Assembly (NCBI RefSeq): GCF_964213995.1
Contig: NW_027590818.1
Span: 124,001 to 166,000 of the forward strand
Origin: Mustelus asterias
Taxonomy: Eukaryota
DNA: 42,000 nucleotides
Reading direction: 5' to 3'
Positions 3,157 to 32,003 of this stretch are shown here, piece after piece. Every line of letters begins with the position of its first letter. Position 1 is the first letter of the stretch. The position numbers and the translations under genes are program-made. The notes below the pieces were generated by a model. That model saw only the letters and a list, made by a program, of their open reading frames with translations. It had not been told where the DNA came from and made no database searches.

Positions 3157-3509
3157 GACTTACATTTTATGAGGAACTTATATGTTGCATGGGACTCCTA
3201 CTTCTGTTTTATGAGGCCATTCGATAACATGTGACTGTCATTGTCAATTCGATACAAAAACAGAAAATGCTGGAAAATCTCAGCAGGTCTGACAGCATCT
3301 GCAGAGAGAAAATAGAGCCAACGTTTCGAGTCTGAATGACCCTTTGTCAGACCGCTTCGCTCCACAGATGCTGTCAGACCTGCTGGGATTTTCCAGCATT
3401 TTCTGTTTTTGTATCGAATTGACAGTGACAGTCACATGTTATCGAATGGCCTCATAAAACAGAAGTAGGAGTCCCATGCAACATATAAGTTCCTCATAAA
3501 ATGTAAGTC
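3157..3509. mobile_element. Penelope-like fold-back element (family A) within a 145-bp-arm inverted repeat
   Basis: Arms 3157-3301 and 3365-3509 with 2 mismatches; core AATGCTGGAAAATCTCAGCAGGTCTG shared with copies at 25273 and 32170; spacer has a degenerate hammerhead on the minus strand (CTGACAA-A-GGGTC-ATTCA-GACTC-GAAACGTT). Confidence 0.75.
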
Positions 3510-3540: not shown

Positions 3541-3612
3541 GCTTAGTGAGCTCAGTCGGTAAAGCAGAAACTCTTAATGTTAAGGTCGTGGGTTTGAGGC
3601 CCACTTTGGGCG
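3541..3612 (+). pseudogene. tRNA-Lys(CTT) pseudogene
   Basis: 72 nt colinear with vertebrate tRNA-Lys-CTT (AGCTCAGTCGGTA...ACTCTTAAT...GGTCGTGGGTTtGAG.CCCAC.TTGGGCG); stems and B box mutated; T-run downstream, no CCA. Confidence 0.85.
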
Positions 3613-4065
3613 TCAGTGTTTTTAAACTTTTCTGCTTTCCTGTGTGAATTCCAGCTCTCCATTCCTCCGGCAGTGTCACCACTCAAACTGGGTATTTCCC
3701 CGTGCTGCTTTGTGAAACCCTCAGTTACTGGTTTCTGAATGAAAACTGCCTGTCCTCCATTGGAAGCCGAAAAGTTTGGTGCTTAATTCAGCTAGAGGTT
3801 TGTTTTTAAATCATTTAGCATCATATTTGGACCGAGATCTGTGATATATTTCTGTCAGTGGAAAAAATAAAATCTACGCATTATTGGCCAGATTTTACCT
3901 TGTATTGCCATCTCTATCGTCAGCGCTTTGCAGCCGATCACTGTCCTTTTCCTGTTCTTGATCTTCTGAACATGACATTTCCAACTCAAGCACAAAGTCG
4001 TGCATCTCCCTTACTGGTACTGACCACAAAATCAATAATGGTTGATGCACAATAATAAAATTGCT

Positions 4066-4137
4066 TGCCCTGACAAGAAATCGAACCCAAGCAGTAACGG
4101 TGCAAGCGCTGCATCCTAACCACGAGACCACGAGGTA
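4066..4137 (-). pseudogene. tRNA-Glu-derived pseudogene (anticodon mutated to TGC)
   Basis: Reverse complement TACCTCGTGGTCTCGTGGTTAGGATGCAGCGCTTGCACCGTTACTGCTTGGGTTCGATTTCTTGTCAGGGCA is colinear with tRNA-Glu (TCCCTGGTGGTCTAGTGGTTAGGATTCGGCGCT...); multiple stem mismatches; TTTT downstream. Confidence 0.8.
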
Positions 4138-4789
4138 AAATACGAGGTGCTGATTTTTTCGAATATCTAATTGATAATTGAAACCTTTGACTTTCATTTT
4201 CTTTTCAGACTTTTGTTCCCCAGAAACAAGTTTGTCCTTGAAATTGTCAAGTTTAAGCTGAGCAAAATTGACTTCTTAGCCAGTGGAAACACGAATGCTG
4301 TTAACTGGAACATGAAATTAGCAGTGCGATGAAATAGTCCCATAAGCTGCTGATATGTAACTTTCAATTTCCAAGTCTCACCAACCTCATCATTGCAGCT
4401 CATGTGATACGTATGAGGCAACACAAGGCAGACATCGGTCACTGAAAGCAATTGACGCAGATCATATGTTAAACATTTTAATGTCGCATCTCTTTATGTT
4501 TCTGTTGCTGCCTCTCCTCCTGCTCCCTCTGACCGTCCAGCTCCTCGGATCAATTAGCTTCTTGTGGCAGACCCAGATAGTTGGAGGGAGGATCGGGGAT
4601 TATAGGACACAACGTTGTGTGAAGAGAGGGAGTTCACAGATGACAGGGGATAGAGACACCAGGATCTTATCTTCCTAATTCTCCAAGATGCAGATTACAG
4701 GAAGTTGCACAGTGCCAATTATTCGCAGTCACGCTCTCCTTTCAGTCTTTTGTACGGAGTCAAGTTTCGTAACCTTTGAAGCCTTGCTG

Positions 4790-5640
4790 CATTTGCTCCG
4801 GGTATTGCCAATACTTCATTTGGAATATTGTGTGCATTTTTGGTGTTTTACATTTAAGACAGGATGTGCATCTAATGGAGACGGTACAACAAAACTTCAC
4901 TGGGCTATTCTCTGAGATGAAGGGGTTGTCCTATCATGAGAGATCGGGTAAATTGGGCTCAAATTCTCTGGAGTTCAGCAAAATGATATACTATCTCATT
5001 GAAACATACACAAGAATGAATGGAATAAATCGGATGCATTCTGAGATGTCATTCGCATTCTCAAATGATTTAAAATATGGGACACAGTCTCAGGATAAGG
5101 GACAAAGACTTTAGGACATTTAGGACTGAGATGAGGAGAATAGTTTTGTTGGTTATATATCCAATTCAATCCAATCAAAGTCCAATTCAGTGTCGCAGCA
5201 AGTGATACATACCCGATCCAAGCTGACAAGACAGGGATCTCACCTCCTATCTTGGACTTGATCTATAGGATCCAAGCTGATTCGAGTAGGCATTGCACCT
5301 GCTCCAAGGCTTGATCTCATTTGCATCTCAGCCAAAAGGCCGAGATGCTGCTTTTAAAAAATGCTTCAAATGAAGCTACAATGTAACCTTGTGGCTTCAA
5401 CCAAGTACAGCATGTCGATGCTGCACTTGATCTTAGCCAAAAGGCTGAGAAGCGATGACGAGAAATTACTCCACTCAAAATGTTGCGAATCGTTGGCATT
5501 TTCTCTTCCAGAAGGTTCGGTATGCTCCATCATTGAACACATTTCATTGTGCGACAGACAGATTTCTTCTGTCCAGCAACGAAGGGAAGCAGGCGGGAAT
5601 ATCGAACTTAAACAAATGCTCAGCCACGAATTAATGTTTC
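4790..5640 (+). mobile_element. Decayed CR1 3' end, interrupted at 5141-5456
   Basis: HLEYCVHFW and MKGLSYHER...LG remnants; GATGAGGAGAA resumes as GATGACGAGAAATTACT after the insert. Confidence 0.8.
5141..5456 (-). ncRNA. Retroposed U2 snRNA-derived structured element (candidate U2-type SINE or variant-U2 retrocopy)
   Basis: Starts exactly at U2 nt 1 (5456-5417 = U2 nt 1-40, 3 substitutions); second stem-I copy at 5348-5325; two AGATCAAG...TCAGCTTGGATC units; flanked by GA(G/C)GAGAA direct repeats inside a CR1. Confidence 0.75.
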
Positions 5641-6162
5641 AACACTGAATCTTACGTTTAATAGCATAATCGAAATATATATATATACTTCACTTAACAT
5701 GTATACAATGAACATTTATGAATTAAATAACGTTGGTAACGCTGGGAGACATTTTTAAGGGCGGCCACGGACCCATTACCAACCCGCAAATGTTTGCGTA
5801 TGAATGCTGCTGGGGAGAAAACAGTAGAATTTCCGTCCCTGGATTATTTCGAACTACCAATCGTTCTTTCAATAGCCGAGCTGCAACAGGTATCTTAAAT
5901 TAGGGCGTTAATCATTTCTCTACAGATTCGAGCAAATTCTATTGCTGCAAAAGCTGATCCAGAACTAGAGCATGACCACATCGTTTACAATTCCATACAA
6001 GGGCCTTCCGTTATTTTGTTTCCACATGGTTGCTGTGTGTGGGGGATATTCCCTTTCTCCTACGAAAAAGTAAAATGAATCCATGCCTCTTACGGCAGGG
6101 AGAAATTAAACGGTAGAGAATAGAATTGACCACCAGAAGCCCAAGGCTACAGGACCTTCAAG

Positions 6163-6372
6163 TCATGATGTGGAGTTGCCAGCGTTGGACTGGGGTAGGT
6201 ACAGTAAGAATTCTCGCAACACCAGGTTAAATTCCAACAGGTTCATTTGGCAGCAAGAGCTTTCGGAGCGCAACTCTTTCACCTGATGTAGGAGCAGAGC
6301 TCCGAAAGCTCGTGCCACCAAATAAACCTGTTGAACTTTAACGTGGTGTTGTGAGACTACTTACTGTACTTC
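6163..6372. mobile_element. Penelope-like fold-back element (family B), older copy
   Basis: TCATGATGTGGAG...ACAGTAAG...CACCAGGTTAA head and inverted arm as at 15414; hammerhead motif at 6280-6314 with core mutated to CTGATGT. Confidence 0.75.
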
Positions 6373-6839
6373 CAACTCAATCATCAATAACATCATTCAC
6401 AGCTGCACCTTGTTCCAAGCATTGTGAACCATTTTACTCAGGAGTTATTCCTGGATTCATATTTTCCTCCTTTGTGTTCTCATTTTGAAATGAGATTCAC
6501 TTCAATCTCCAACAAAAATCGAATTGCAAACCAGGCGGAAAACCAATGGGAAACAAATCACTGGGTAAGACAGATTCAATGGCGCTCATTGCAGATTCAC
6601 AACACTCAGCTTTTAAATCAAATTAAGGAATTTTACACCGAAAATTTTAAGAAAGTTGTTGTGGCTTTTTTTTGTGACTGACACACTCCGGTATTGTGTA
6701 AATGCAGCTCGGACGTTCAGTGAGCCGTTTTATCATCTACCTGTGTTTTCCTGAGCCTGTGCTCGGTGTATTGAGAGGATTGTCCTGGGTTGCTGTTGTC
6801 GCAGGGATGGGGAGCCACCCGCTGATTGAAGCTGCAGTC

Positions 6840-6856
6840 GCCGCTATCTGGTGGCA
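6840..6856 (-). promoter_or_regulatory. Possible CTCF site
   Basis: Reverse complement TGCCACCAGATAGCGGC resembles the CTCF core; motif match only. Confidence 0.3.
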
Positions 6857-7109
6857 GTGGGTGATTGGAGATTGCGGGGTAACATTCTGATGCTTGTCTC
6901 TGTCTCACTCACCGTAGAGCTGATTCAGGAATGTGATTATATTTATGATTAGTGTTGCTTAACCCCCTTTGAATTTAAAATCACGCATGTTAATTTGTTA
7001 ACCCACTTTTGAACGAGCATCCTTTGCATGCTAAGTAAATGCAACAACGACGACACTTCAGTAACGATGCCATAGTTGGTATATCTAATTCCTTCCTGCA
7101 AACATATAA

Positions 7110-9445: not shown

Positions 9446-10353
9446 TTATTTCAATCGTTTAAATATCAGACAGAATGGGTATGTCAGCCAAATCTTTAAC
9501 TCCTCCCTTACTTTACTCTGGGTGCCTGCGTAAATGAATGGGTTAATGCAGGAACTCAACAGCTGAAGCATATACCCACCTTCGTCCAGAATAAAATTCG
9601 ATTGATTGTAATTGGTGCCCGAGAAATAGCTAACGTTCGCAATTTGGACACAGAGAAAAGTTGTAATTACTAACGAATATAACAAGATGAAACTTCCAGA
9701 GACACAGAAGAGTAAAACAATCGACTTTCGCCTCTTCTCCACTTCAGGGTCTCTCTGATTCTCTGCATTGCTTTGATCCAAGAGTCTGCTCCGGGCTCTG
9801 TTGGCTATAACGATGTGCCTTACGGTCAGTGCATTAAACAGTAAAATCAAAATGAATGGAAGACAAGGATTTAAGATGACGAAAATCCAGTCAAATGAGA
9901 CCCAAGCAGCTGTTGTGTAATATGTTGTTTTTAAGTTGCAGTACCATGGTGTCTCATCGATGAAAAATGCAGGCTCATAGATAAAGTACAGCGGGATATT
10001 TCTTACACTGTTCAGAGCGCAGGCAGTTCCAATAACCACAGCTGCTGTTTTTTCTGTGCAAAATTTGGTTTTCAGTTTCTGACAACAAATCGCAACAAAT
10101 CGATCAAAGGTGAACGCGACGGTGACCCAGACAGATGAATCCCTGACCCCATAAATCAGCATAAGACTAACACGACAGACCGGAGTGATGGACAGGAAAC
10201 TGAATTGGAAATAAATACCTATAATCCGGTTAACTATTACAGCAGTGATGATTACGAGGAGATCCGTTACAGCCATGAATACCAGGTAATAAGTGATACA
10301 TTTGGAAAGGCCACATCTTCCTCGAGGTAGGATCACAATCACTGCCAAATTAG
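9446..10353 (-). CDS. GPR139/GPR142-like class A GPCR, gene 1, exon 2 (spliced protein 325 aa)
   Basis: Acceptor TTTTTCCTGTCACAG then phase-1 (A)NLAVIVIL; open through TM7 with MAVTDLL, TPVC, FTFDRFVAIC, WYC, SSCINPFIY. Confidence 0.92.
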
Positions 10354-10929
10354 CTGTGACAGGAAAAACAGCATGTGAATAATGCTAGAAAATAAGGACA
10401 GAACATAAAATATTGCAATGACTCAGAAGTCGGGAAATCATTGCAGAGAGAGCAGTTTTAGCATATCAGGTGGATTACCTGCCTCGTAACTGGAGGAAAT
10501 AAAACCACTCAATGCACACAGCTGCTGGCATGTTGCTGCAATATTAGGAAGATTTTTGTTTCTCTCATATGGCGGACACTGAACTTGGTACTTTGCAGAT
10601 CATTGGCAGGAAATACAATTAATTATCATCTGTCTCAAATTGTAGAGAAGAACAAAGATAAGAAGAGTCATTGCGAATCATTGCGAATTCGAATGGGCTC
10701 TAATACTATATTGACCAAGGAATTGGGCAGAAAGACAATATATGACATTGAGTGTTAAAGAAGGGAAATGTTTCACACAAAATAAAAACAGAAAGAAACG
10801 ATGACTGAAATATAAACGACCCATTTGCTTGGGAAGAGCTCGACTCCTGATTGATAATGATCACAAACTAATATATCAATAATTTGCATAAACCAATAAA
10901 GAAACTCAACATGTAAATATCTCATTGCA

Positions 10930-15413: not shown

Positions 15414-15782
15414 TCATGATGTGGAGATGCCGGCGTTGGACTGGGGTAAGCACAGTAAGAAGTTTCACAACACCAGGTTAAAGTCCAACAGGTTTATTTG
15501 GTAGCAAATACCAAAAGCTTTCGGAGCAGAGCTCCTTCGTCAGATGGAGTGGTTATCTGTTCTCAAACAGTACACAGACACAGAAATCAAATTACAGAAT
15601 ACTGATTAGAATTACTGATTGCATTCTAATCAGTATTCTGTAATTTGATTTCTGTGTCTGTGTACTGTTTGAGAACAGATATCCACTCCATCTGACGAAG
15701 GAGCTCTGCTCCGAAAGCTTATGGTATTTGCTACCAAATAAACCTGTTGGACGTTAACCTGGTGTTGTGAGACTTCTTACTG
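15414..15782. mobile_element. Penelope-like fold-back element (family B), young copy
   Basis: ~161-bp inverted arms (15452-15612 / 15623-15783, about 4 mismatches, 10-nt loop); 12-bp TSD TCCTTTGGGCAG at 15402-15413 and 15783-15794; AATAAA in each arm. Confidence 0.85.
15688..15724 (+). ncRNA. Minimal type I hammerhead ribozyme motif
   Basis: CCAT-CTGACGA-A-GGAGC-TCT-GCTCC-GAAA-GC-TT-ATGG: stem I CCAU/AUGG, intact core, 5-bp stem II, palindromic AGCU in place of stem III. Confidence 0.75.
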
Positions 15783-17619
15783 TCCTTTGGGCAGGCCAGT
15801 TCTGGCTCCACAGGGCAGCAGCACCTTGGATTCCATGCCCTCTCACTTTTGCTAGAAGCCTTGCATGGGGGACCTTATCGAACGCCTTGCTAAAATCCAT
15901 ATAAACCACATCTACCGCTTTCCCTTCGTTAATGTGTTTAGTCACGTTTTTGAAGAACTCCACCAGGCTCGTAAGGCAAGATCTGCCTTTGACAAAGCCG
16001 TGCTGAGTATTCTTGAGCATACTAAACCTCTCTAAATGCTCATAAATCCCGTCCCTCAGCATCTTCTCCATCAGCTTACCAGCCACTGAGGTTAGACTCA
16101 CCGGTCGGTAATTTCCTGGGCTATCCCTATTCCCCTTCTTGAAAATAGGAACCACATCCGCAATCCTCCAGTCCTCCGGCACCTCTCCCATCTCCATTGA
16201 TGACGCAAAGATCATCGCCTGAGGCTCTGCGATCTCTTCCCTCGCCTCCCACAGTAACCTGGGGTACATCCCATCCAGACCCGGCGACTTATCTATCTTG
16301 ATGCCATTCAAAGATTCCAGCACAACCTCTTTCTTAAAGTCCACATACTCAATCTTTTCAGTCCACCGCAAGACCACAGTACATCCACCCAGGTCCTTTT
16401 TCTCTGTGAAAACCGAGGCAAAATACTCATTAAGCACCTCTGCCATTTCTACTGGTTCTGTACAGACTTTCCAACCTTCAACGTTTATCGGCCCTATTCC
16501 TTCACGTCTCATCCTTTTTCCTTTCACATATTTATAGAACGCCTTAGGGTTCTCCTTAATCCTACCTGCCAAGGCATTCTCGTGATCCCTTCTGGCTCTC
16601 CTAATTTCCTTCTTTAGTCCCTTCCTACAAGCCGTATACTCATCTAGATCCCTATCTTCGCCAAGCTCTCTGAACCTTTTGTACGCTTTCCTTTTCTTTG
16701 CGACTAGGTCCCGCACAGCTTTCGTGCAACACGGTTCCTTTAACCTACCAACACCTCCCTGTCTGCTCGGAACATTGTCCTGTAGAACTCGAGACGGACA
16801 TTCCTTGAAAAACTGCCACCTCTCTTCACTACATTCCCCGGGAATACCTCCTTCCAATTTACTCCTCTAATTTGCGGCCTTATGTCTTCATATTTCCCCT
16901 TACACCATATAAACGCTTTCTGAGCTAGCCTGATCCTCTCTTTTTCCAATGCAAGCACAAAGGTGATAGAGTTATGATCGCTATCCCCAAGATACTCTCC
17001 CACTGAGAGATTTGACACCTGTCCAGGTTCATTGGTCAGTATCAGATCAAGTACAGCCTCTCCTCTTGTAGGCTTCTCCACATGCTGTGTTAGGAAACCC
17101 TCCTGAACACACCTAACGTACTCCTCCCCATCCAATCCCCTTGCCCTAGGGATATTCCAATCTATGTTTGGGAAATCAAAGTCTCCCATCACAACAACTC
17201 TGCTATTACTGCATCTCTCCACGAGCTGTTTCCCGATCTGCTCCTCCACCTCCCTGTTACTATTGGGCGGCCTGTAGAAAACTCCCAGCAAAGTGATCGA
17301 CCCCTTCCCATTCCGAACTTCCACCCACAGAGACTCTGTAGACAATCTCTCCACAGCATACACCTTCTCTACAGCTGTGATTCCCGCCTTAGTCAATGCG
17401 CAACCGTTATCCTACCAGTGGCTGCTGCAAAGTAACTTCGTCAGGTGGTTACTTCGAATTGCTTTCTTCCTCAGAAGCGACTGTCCGAGCTCTTTAGAAC
17501 AATGTTGGTCTAAATAAAGGGTGATTATACTGTTGCAAAAAATGTATGAAGCGTCAACTTCGCTGCAAAAGAATGTTGTAATTCGAGAAGTTCCGTTTCC
17601 ATTCGTTCATACAATGTGA

Positions 17620-29558: not shown

Positions 29559-31092
29559 GTATGATATTGTAATTTTGCAGTTAGTTAATAGCTAATTATC
29601 GTTCAGCTCCATCAATGCTGTCTTTGTATTCACATCACTTCTTCAAGTTACATACGTATTTGCTTGTGTTTAATCCCTCCAGCGATATAAATTGTTTTAT
29701 TTGAAGGATATACATTATTTTTTTAAGTACAATTCTTTATATGTAACTGCATTAACTCGTCTTTTTAAAAGTACATTATCGGGCGTTTGTGAATATAGTT
29801 TAGCGTAATTAACGTTAAAGTTTCAAACCTTGAATGTTTTCATTGGACCTATTTCCCCACATAGTTTCTTCACTTGAATGCACTTTTCACTGACACCATC
29901 TTCCTCCGATAGTTATTATTTAATCGCGGCACTTATAGAATTTCACCAATTTACTTCTCAGATCTCAGTGTGTATCTTCAATTTTATTGTTTAATAGAAC
30001 CGCTAGAATGGATTAATTAGCTTACTATTAACACCGTATAAATGCAATTCATTTTTTTTATTTTCAGAACTGTAGACGTTATTATGGTTTTATTTAGATC
30101 CCTTGTGATTGTCCCAAATAGTCAATTCTGACATGGCTATCACAGAGTCAATGGACTGGCATTGTATTCTCGGTGCGGTTCCTTGCAGTGACTTTTAAAC
30201 TTTCGTATCACGTTGTTTTTGTAGATTTATTGTTGACACGTGTAGTGAAGCAATAATTCCCTCAAATAATTCAACAATTGAGAAGATTGAACCACTGAAT
30301 AATCCCAAATTGAATTGTATCAAATCGTTTATTTAAGGAACGTTAGGAGGCATGGCGGTTGACAGACATGTAAGCAATATAATTGTTGCCCTCTAATGGA
30401 TGACTGATATTACCCTTCACTCACCGAACTCAGTGCTCGTATTCTCAGCCGCTAACGCTTATAGACACTGGATTTCTCATGAAGAGAGCTCCAGTTTGCC
30501 CCTGCATAGCACATAAAATGTCCCCGGCAATTTCACAGAAATTTTCATTGTTCATTCTCTTCCCTGGGATGGTATTTTTGTGCAAGTTTATTCCCAACCT
30601 TTCGAAAACAAGTGAATGATTTTACATTACTTAATTGATAGGACCTGTTTTACATCGACTGTGAGATATAATCCGTGACATTGTTACTTTCCAATCTCAT
30701 TTTTGGCTGGTTTGCTGTTTATCTACTGTAATTTTTTTTCTTCTTTTATTTGTTGTGGATATTTTGGTACACCTCCCTTTTTATTCTTTGCATTCTGTCG
30801 GCCGCGTTCAATCCTGCTCTGTCAGTAGTGATATAAATTTGATTTCTTCTAATCGTTTATTTGGGCATCATGGAGAATTTTGCATGATTATTCTATTGCC
30901 CTATCTAATTATCTAATAAAGATGACTTTTTCAAAACAAGTAAGGAATTGTCCAGAGCGGAATGACTCACATCCAACCTAATATCAAATCATAATGCTTT
31001 ACATTTCACACACAATACTAAAACACTGTTGATTTTATTGCCATTCGAAAAACTAACTCTCTCTGTTTTTTTTCTCTCTCCCTTTCTTACAG

Positions 31093-32003
31093 CCAACTTG
31101 GCAGTGATTGTGATCCTGTCTCGAAGAAGATGCGGTCTCTCTGGATGTGTCACTTATTACCTGGTTTCCATGGCGGTAACGGATCTCCTGGTGATGCTCA
31201 CGGCTGTAATATTAAACCGAATTGCTGGCATCTATTTCCCCTCTAGTTTCCTGTCTATCACACCAGTTTGCGGTATTCGTGCTGTCCTGAATATCACAGC
31301 AATGGACAGTTCTGCCTGGTTAACGGTCGCTTTCACCTTTGATCGATTTGTGTCCATTTCCTGTCAGAAGCTGAAATTAAAATATTGCACAGAAAAGAGA
31401 GCGATGCGTGTAATAGGAATCGTGTCCATTCTGGCCTGTGTAAAAAATATCTTCCTATATTTACAATTTGAACCTCGGTATATCATTAATAACGTACCCT
31501 GGTTCTGCATGATAAGAGGAATAATTTATACATCACCAGCTTGGGCAGCGTATGACTGGATCCGTTCCACTTTAACCCCTTTTCTTCCTTTCATTCTGAT
31601 TGCATTGCTCAATGCTCTGACTGTCAAACACATTCTAGCGGCTAATAGAGCCCGCAGGAGACTCCGGACCCAGAGCAATGGAGAGAATCAGAGTGACCCA
31701 GAGGTGGAGAAGAGGAGAAAGTCCATTGTTTTACTCTTCGCCATCTCGGGCAGTTTCATCCTATCTTATTTGTTATTTTTTATAAACATCCTCTTTGTGC
31801 GAATTGCTAAAGTTACTTATTTCTCGGGTTCGAATTTCAGTAATTCCACGTTCATTCTCTCTGAGACTGGATATATGCTCCAGCTCTTGAGTTCTTGTAT
31901 CAACCCCTTTATTTATGCTGTGACCCAGAATAAAATCAGAGATGAGTTAAAGAATGGGATGAAATATCCACTGAACGTTTTTGTAAAAATATTTATGTCT
32001 TGA
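31093..32003 (+). CDS. GPR139/GPR142-like class A GPCR, gene 2, exon 2 (spliced protein 326 aa)
   Basis: Long polypyrimidine tract + CTTACAG, phase 1; (A)NLAVIVIL, MAVTDLL, TPVC, FTFDRF, WFC, SSCINPFIY; no disruption. Confidence 0.93.

Follow-up and report, generated by a model that had tools for sequence, protein, structure and literature searches.

The window analysed here is a stretch of 42,000 nt from the genome of Mustelus asterias (contig NW_027590818.1, positions 124,001 to 166,000 of the forward strand). It contains a short element that begins with U2 snRNA sequence and that interrupts a decayed CR1-type fragment, at the coordinates and on the strand proposed by a first-pass annotation made from the sequence alone. 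Elsewhere in the window, two GPR139-like receptor ORFs of a shark-expanded family were found at 9446-10384 (minus strand) and 30966-32003 (plus strand); the latter has 1,162 relatives at E ≤ 1e-30, and the best 120 listed are all from sharks. Palindromic MITE-like repeats, which are common in other loci, occupy 3157-3509, 6199-6369 and 15448-15787, and a weak mir-216 match inside the first of these likely reflects only its symmetry. A tRNA-like sequence at 3541-3612 (plus strand; 27.5 bits, below the Rfam cutoff) is a pseudogene or a SINE head. The head of the U2 element gives the only Rfam match at gathering level in the window (U2, 47.6 bits, E 1.7e-7, threshold 46), and the element matches no other Rfam family. 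The features of the locus are as follows.

4718-5568, plus strand: decayed 3′ fragment of a CR1-type ORF2, cut in antisense by the element (tblastn with the CR1 ORF of the window).
5133-5140, plus strand: target-site duplication, left copy, single at the unoccupied site of the related locus L196.
5141-5456, minus strand: the complete element of 316 nt, a dispersed copy of subfamily 1 (of six) without a promoter (family alignment).
5417-5456, minus strand: head, corresponding to U2 snRNA nt 1-40 (37/40 identical to the genome's own U2 gene; Rfam RF00004).
5385-5416, minus strand: anti-head arm, an imperfect inverted copy for which pairing with U2 nt 11 to 36-39 is predicted (hairpin H1).
5351-5376, minus strand: hairpin H2, followed by a U-tract that resembles an Sm site but has no closing G (sequence and folds).
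5323-5348, minus strand: second U2 module (nt 4-27), with the module itself at 5325-5348, extended into hairpin H3 (alignment and folds).
5319-5326, minus strand: perfect octamer, the same 8-mer as that at −196 in one of the shark's own U1 genes, found in each of the six consensuses.
5269-5320, minus strand: hairpin H4, the first unit of about 54 nt (alignment and folds).
5215-5264, minus strand: hairpin H5, the second unit (in the consensuses, 33 to 37 of 52 to 56 aligned positions agree with H4).
5141-5214, minus strand: small hairpin H6, short tail repeats and an A-rich tail (sequence and folds).
5457-5464, plus strand: target-site duplication, right copy, with one mismatch (sequence and comparison with L196).

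The start exactly at U2 nt 1, the match to nt 1-40 and the second copy of nt 4-27 had all been pointed out previously and were recovered here, the internal module being 88% identical to the head. The U-tract beside H2 was judged against the Sm consensus. Two units of about 50 nt and the terminal repeats, also described in the first-pass annotation, are present as well, each unit measuring about 54 nt, but the U2 origin suggested for the units did not hold. Their match to U2 nt 41-191 does not rise above that of shuffled sequences (126 to 163 of 200 shuffles reached an equal score), and both are instead predicted hairpins. The two units are therefore not established as U2 modules, and this origin was rejected. 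U2 accounts for only the head (nt 1-40) and a single internal module (nt 4-27), and H5 is likely an old duplicate of H4.

The location within a CR1 was borne out by tblastn, which matches a CR1-type ORF2 fragment on the plus strand in both flanks (E 5e-15 on the left and 2e-4 on the right). The direct repeat around the element is a true 8-bp target-site duplication: the empty site at L196 carries a single copy, and the matches of the two flanks to this locus overlap by the 8 nt of the duplication. A larger segment of the window (3641-6963), element included, is found in five more copies (L002 to L006, located on C71 twice and on C90, C108 and C138) that have 97.7 to 98.6% identity and flanks in common. 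This segment is a recent segmental duplication.

The element is not single-copy. A 16-nt motif from its tail has 5,492 exact matches in the genome, against one for a control motif, and 51 of 66 copies picked without this motif carry it exactly, which points to roughly 7,000 copies, an estimate based on a set that leans to well-kept copies. A DNA search returned 3,010 candidates, and the 40 that were scored gave 41 matches; five of these, 98 to 99% identical, share their flanks with the window copy, and the remainder are about 90% identical and have unrelated flanks. For a position-ordered sample, the first 90 of 100 listed matches on C1 were taken, minus five overlapping loci. This yielded 107 matches, 105 of them at least 45 nt long and 102 with the 3′ end. 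Among the latter, 77 start within the first 20 nt of the element and 45 have a target-site duplication of 9 to 26 nt detected by automatic search, and the flanks of the sampled copies are unrelated to one another.

The comparison of 123 near-full copies revealed six subfamilies, at a cut set by the analyst's choice, with a mean identity of 95.5 to 97.2% to their own consensus; the consensuses are 83 to 95% alike. The window copy is identical to the consensus of subfamily 1 at 277 of 298 nt, and to the other five consensuses at 84 to 87%. All near-full copies have one non-U2 body of 270 nt in common, which rules out a U2 processed pseudogene (U2 alone plus a tail), in agreement with the earlier view that this is not an ordinary U2 pseudogene. 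Copies that run on into U2 stem-loops III and IV, which had been envisaged, were found only where the copy sits inside a U2 gene. The element is one copy of a young, non-coding, U2-headed, SINE-like retroposon family. The tRNA, 7SL or 5S head and the internal promoter of classical Pol III SINEs are not found in it, and its internal T-runs argue against Pol III transcription. At one locus (L012, 1202-2143), two copies have entered the tail of another in reverse orientation, and the target duplicated there is tail sequence.

The U2 genes on C24 are organized in two tandem units, of 1.8 kb and 8 kb. The 8-kb unit holds a LINE (L051) with a zinc-knuckle ORF1, an APE endonuclease and a reverse transcriptase, inserted 37 nt into U2 so that its A-tail joins U2 nt 38. 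These are the features of Keno, and the U2 flank of the LINE is the flank printed for Keno (PMC6136364). At 44.81 to 44.94 Mb of C24 (L051 to L054, L058), this unit of 8,035 bp, with an intact U2 gene and a broken Keno, is repeated in at least 15 tandem copies, and an intact Keno-type ORF2 of 1,144 codons lies on C21. A third U2 cluster on C24 contains a separate, internally deleted Keno derivative (L254, 1082-1520; L055; L256), in which about 130 nt of the 5′ end are joined to the 3′ end, at about 80% identity to the Keno of L051. Next to this derivative lie diverged Keno ends, behind which U2 resumes at nt 40.

Nine copies of the element are joined to U2 nt 38 in the same manner as the LINE, against none in the control, and three of the nine are of the type of the window copy; this exact junction is found in only these 9 of more than 5,000 copies. 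The tail of the Keno-type LINE has 707 exact matches, of which 23 are joined to U2, and 15 of these 23 lie in the amplified 8-kb unit, so that the local LINE is mostly dispersed too. Of 30 loci with a Keno tail, 25 show a Keno match of 145 nt or more, and four of the 30 have the head of the element directly behind, where about 1 in 10,000 per locus would be expected by chance, as estimated from copy density. The shared junction at nt 37/38 and the elements directly behind Keno tails substantiate the link to Keno that the first-pass annotation had suspected. As for the possibility that the element is a UTR of such a LINE, neither the 3′ nor the 5′ UTR of the local Keno-type LINE matches it: body and tail gave no alignment to the Keno UTRs above shuffled sequences (55 to 180 of 300 shuffles were equal), and an origin of either from these UTRs was rejected for the sampled Keno family. 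No U2-like consensus was observed at 17 dispersed insertion sites. Keno is very likely the mobilising partner; this we infer from the shared insertion sites, there being no tail common to element and LINE.

Candidate source copies were found in the U2 arrays. Five copies lie at the U2 start, preceded by 235 bp or more of U2 upstream DNA (on C24, C21, C14, C1 and C8), and intact U2 genes of the respective arrays have this same DNA upstream. The copy on C24 is of type 1 and internally deleted, and those on C21, C14, C1 and C8 are of type 2 (four of eight matches). Keno copies in U2 arrays display the same layout behind U2 upstream DNA. The second type of U2 gene has its own 262-bp spacer and forms compact arrays (L069 and L226 to L230 on C21, and on C14, C1, C8 and C7) that are heavily invaded by Keno and by the element. 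For subfamily 1, to which the window copy belongs, no promoter-backed copy was found in three pattern searches or among the five; a match on C11 was rejected as a source, being a dispersed copy with its own duplication.

Traces of U2 genes were also observed at dispersed copies. L072 has 35 nt of U2 upstream spacer inside its target-site duplication, the duplicated locus L077/L078 has about 13 nt, and in L064 U2 nt 33-53 before the element and nt 38-58 after it lie inside the duplication. These three insertions derive from copies embedded in U2 genes. Upstream spacer and a downstream U2 piece within the duplications exclude mature U2 snRNA as the origin. An extra U2 piece in front of the head was found in 15 of 26 matches, compared with 10 in the control. 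The 14 dispersed pieces end at nt 48-57 and half of them start at nt 1-2, a pattern expected as much from template switching to U2 snRNA as from array sources.

The upstream octamer, which is present in the U1 and U4 genes, is absent from both types of U2 gene, within 500 bp of the type-1 gene and in the 262-bp spacer of type 2. Leave-one-out scores for a proximal sequence element (PSE) in the U2 upstream regions, obtained with a small matrix, were −7.4 and −10.3. A matrix trained on U1 and U4 placed the best site of type 2 at −62 and found none near −60 for type 1. An earlier motif test (0/200 shuffles) was discarded, having been inflated by two related U1 genes.

Head-to-tail tandems around a repeated target-site duplication account for 25 of the 105 sampled copies. 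The members of 9 out of 14 adjacent pairs belong to different subfamilies (two of these pairs involve a short fragment), which indicates that insertion sites are reused. In L091, L095 and L158 the duplication runs into the downstream head, which suggests homology-aided joining of the 5′ end. In 11 of the 14 pairs the internal octamer was located, 165 to 205 nt ahead of the following head; the corresponding distance in the shark's own U1 and U4 genes is 196 to 227 nt. No significant PSE-like site was detected within the element (13 to 126 of 200 shuffles score as well).

The RNA of the element is predicted to fold into a chain of hairpins, with z-scores of the body between −2.7 and −8.2 (60 shuffles per consensus) and of −3.7 for the window copy. 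In hairpin H1, 22 to 25 pairs, 7 to 9 of them G-U, are formed in all six consensuses, and the duplex is stronger than in 500 of 500 shuffles in each subfamily. This fold-back is predicted to cover most or all of the branch-point-binding stretch of U2 (nt 33-38). Subfamily differences affect 40 of 120 unpaired columns versus 23 of 194 paired ones (p = 9e-6). Pair retention, tested strictly, gave a negative result (33 retained and 42 not; control, 350 versus 329; p = 0.22). Given a positive column bias and a negative retention test, the structure stands as a prediction with mixed comparative support.

The window holds a dispersed copy of a U2-headed family, and these observations make it probable that the family is copied by the enzymes of Keno from the RNA of invaded U2 genes. 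Since some copies lie inside U2 genes at the Keno site, borrowing of both the U2 promoter and the Keno enzymes is likely. In the proposed cycle, an element would insert into a U2 gene, where its 5′ end would be joined through homology between head and target. This join would bring the element to lie precisely at +1 of the U2 promoter and so make it a source gene. The RNA would fold and hide its head, including most of the branch-point-binding stretch, and the A-tail would serve the ORF2 protein of Keno for priming, in most cases at A/T-rich sites without specificity, leaving dead copies such as that of the window. Occasional Keno-primed return into U2 genes would provide new source copies. More tentatively, at somewhat under an even chance, the family could be a promoter-less SINE that renews its sources by homing, with a head that steers the 5′ join to +1 of an snRNA-type Pol II promoter and is afterwards folded away from splicing, and with an octamer that boosts the next gene of the array. 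If true, this would constitute a self-regenerating promoter-capture cycle and would explain in general terms the transcription of snRNA-headed SINEs.

Promoter capture is dispensed with if the family follows Kojima's SINEU model, in which Tx1/Keno would mobilise read-through RNA from assorted flanking promoters, template switching to U2 snRNA would supply fresh heads, and insertions into U2 genes would mostly be dead ends. The 14 copies with an extra U2 piece ending at nt 48-57, 7 of them from nt 1-2, would be accounted for, comparable pieces being described for SINEU-2 (PMC4494074); likewise, promoter motifs are weak and an array source for subfamily 1 was not found. We nevertheless regard it as unlikely, given the spacer DNA or downstream U2 piece within the duplications of L072, L077 and L064, and the start of most copies near U2 +1 among unrelated flanks. 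Head-to-tail pairs could also be sources in themselves, the octamer of the upstream copy providing a distal element to whichever copy or U2 gene follows. The occurrence of the octamer in all six consensuses, the 25 of 105 sampled copies in tandem and the spacing of 165 to 205 nt, set beside 196 to 227 nt in the U1 and U4 genes, agree with such an arrangement; the element, however, has no significant PSE-like site, and the octamer lies in a structurally invariant region and was noticed post hoc, which leaves the idea improbable.

The ordered hairpins, the Sm-like U-tract and the variable loops on invariant stems would be expected of a U2-variant small RNA useful to the host, whose gene sheds many processed pseudogenes. 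Such a role is hard to reconcile with six concurrent subfamilies that are 83 to 95% alike, with insertions that break U2 genes and with an Sm-like tract without its G, and no dedicated gene array was seen in the five U2 regions mapped; we hold it to be very improbable. The same grade is given to an internally deleted, SIDE-like Keno made of the 5′ and 3′ UTRs of the LINE. Local Keno copies do start with a U2 piece, and the A-rich tails of LINE and element end at one junction, but the body and tail do not align to the Keno UTRs above shuffles, and a true deletion derivative exists apart and is recognisable as such (L254). This origin is largely refuted for the sampled Keno family, though not for an unsampled, diverged Tx1 donor.

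Known systems offer several points of comparison. SINEU-1, -2 and -3 and Tx1-Mar are crocodilian, and none was found outside crocodilians according to Kojima 2015 (PMC4494074), which leaves open how SINEU is transcribed without an internal promoter. The features of the SINEU class were found in the shark family (a U2 head, a short, non-coding, multi-copy family, an A-tail with duplications and a target shared with a Tx1 LINE). As far as SINEU is described in that text, it shares with the shark element a length below 500 nt, a U2-derived 5′ head, repeated U2 modules, an A-tail, an internal oligo-T and tandem copies around the duplication, together with the lack of a tail shared with the partner LINE and a partner in the Keno-related Tx1 group. 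The shark element targets the U2 gene itself, whereas the target of SINEU is Mariner-N4; copies of the former lie behind U2 upstream DNA, whereas the transcription of the latter was left open (PMC4494074). The main text of that paper does not mention for SINEU a fold-back over the head such as that predicted here.

Keno, a U2-targeting Tx1 LINE, has the same 3′ junction at nt 37/38, a U2 piece at its 5′ end and a duplication that spans U2 from nt 38 to roughly 53-58, as does the element (PMC4494074, PMC4640811 and PMC6136364). In contrast with Keno, the element is non-coding, and it lacks detectable UTR sequence of this LINE. The R2 SIDEs of Drosophila are likewise short, non-autonomous, located in the array of the target gene and dependent on its co-transcript, as is proposed for the element, but they are deletion derivatives of the LINE with a ribozyme and the LINE 3′ UTR (PMC3414825); the element has neither of these detectable and has spread genome-wide. 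SacSINE1 and the CmiSINEs are, like it, high-copy short retroposons of cartilaginous fishes, and unlike it have tRNA heads and L2 tails (PMC5499810); the word “snRNA” occurs 0 times in that paper. An snRNA-headed SINE in sharks was not found in the open-access literature searched. The family would extend the class of snRNA-headed SINEs from crocodilians to sharks. Here, one genome contains candidate sources, transduced copies and a partner LINE whose ORF2 is full-length, which makes the transcription of such SINEs directly testable. Thousands of copies of the element pass or approach the Rfam threshold for U2, and counts of U2 genes in sharks may therefore be inflated.
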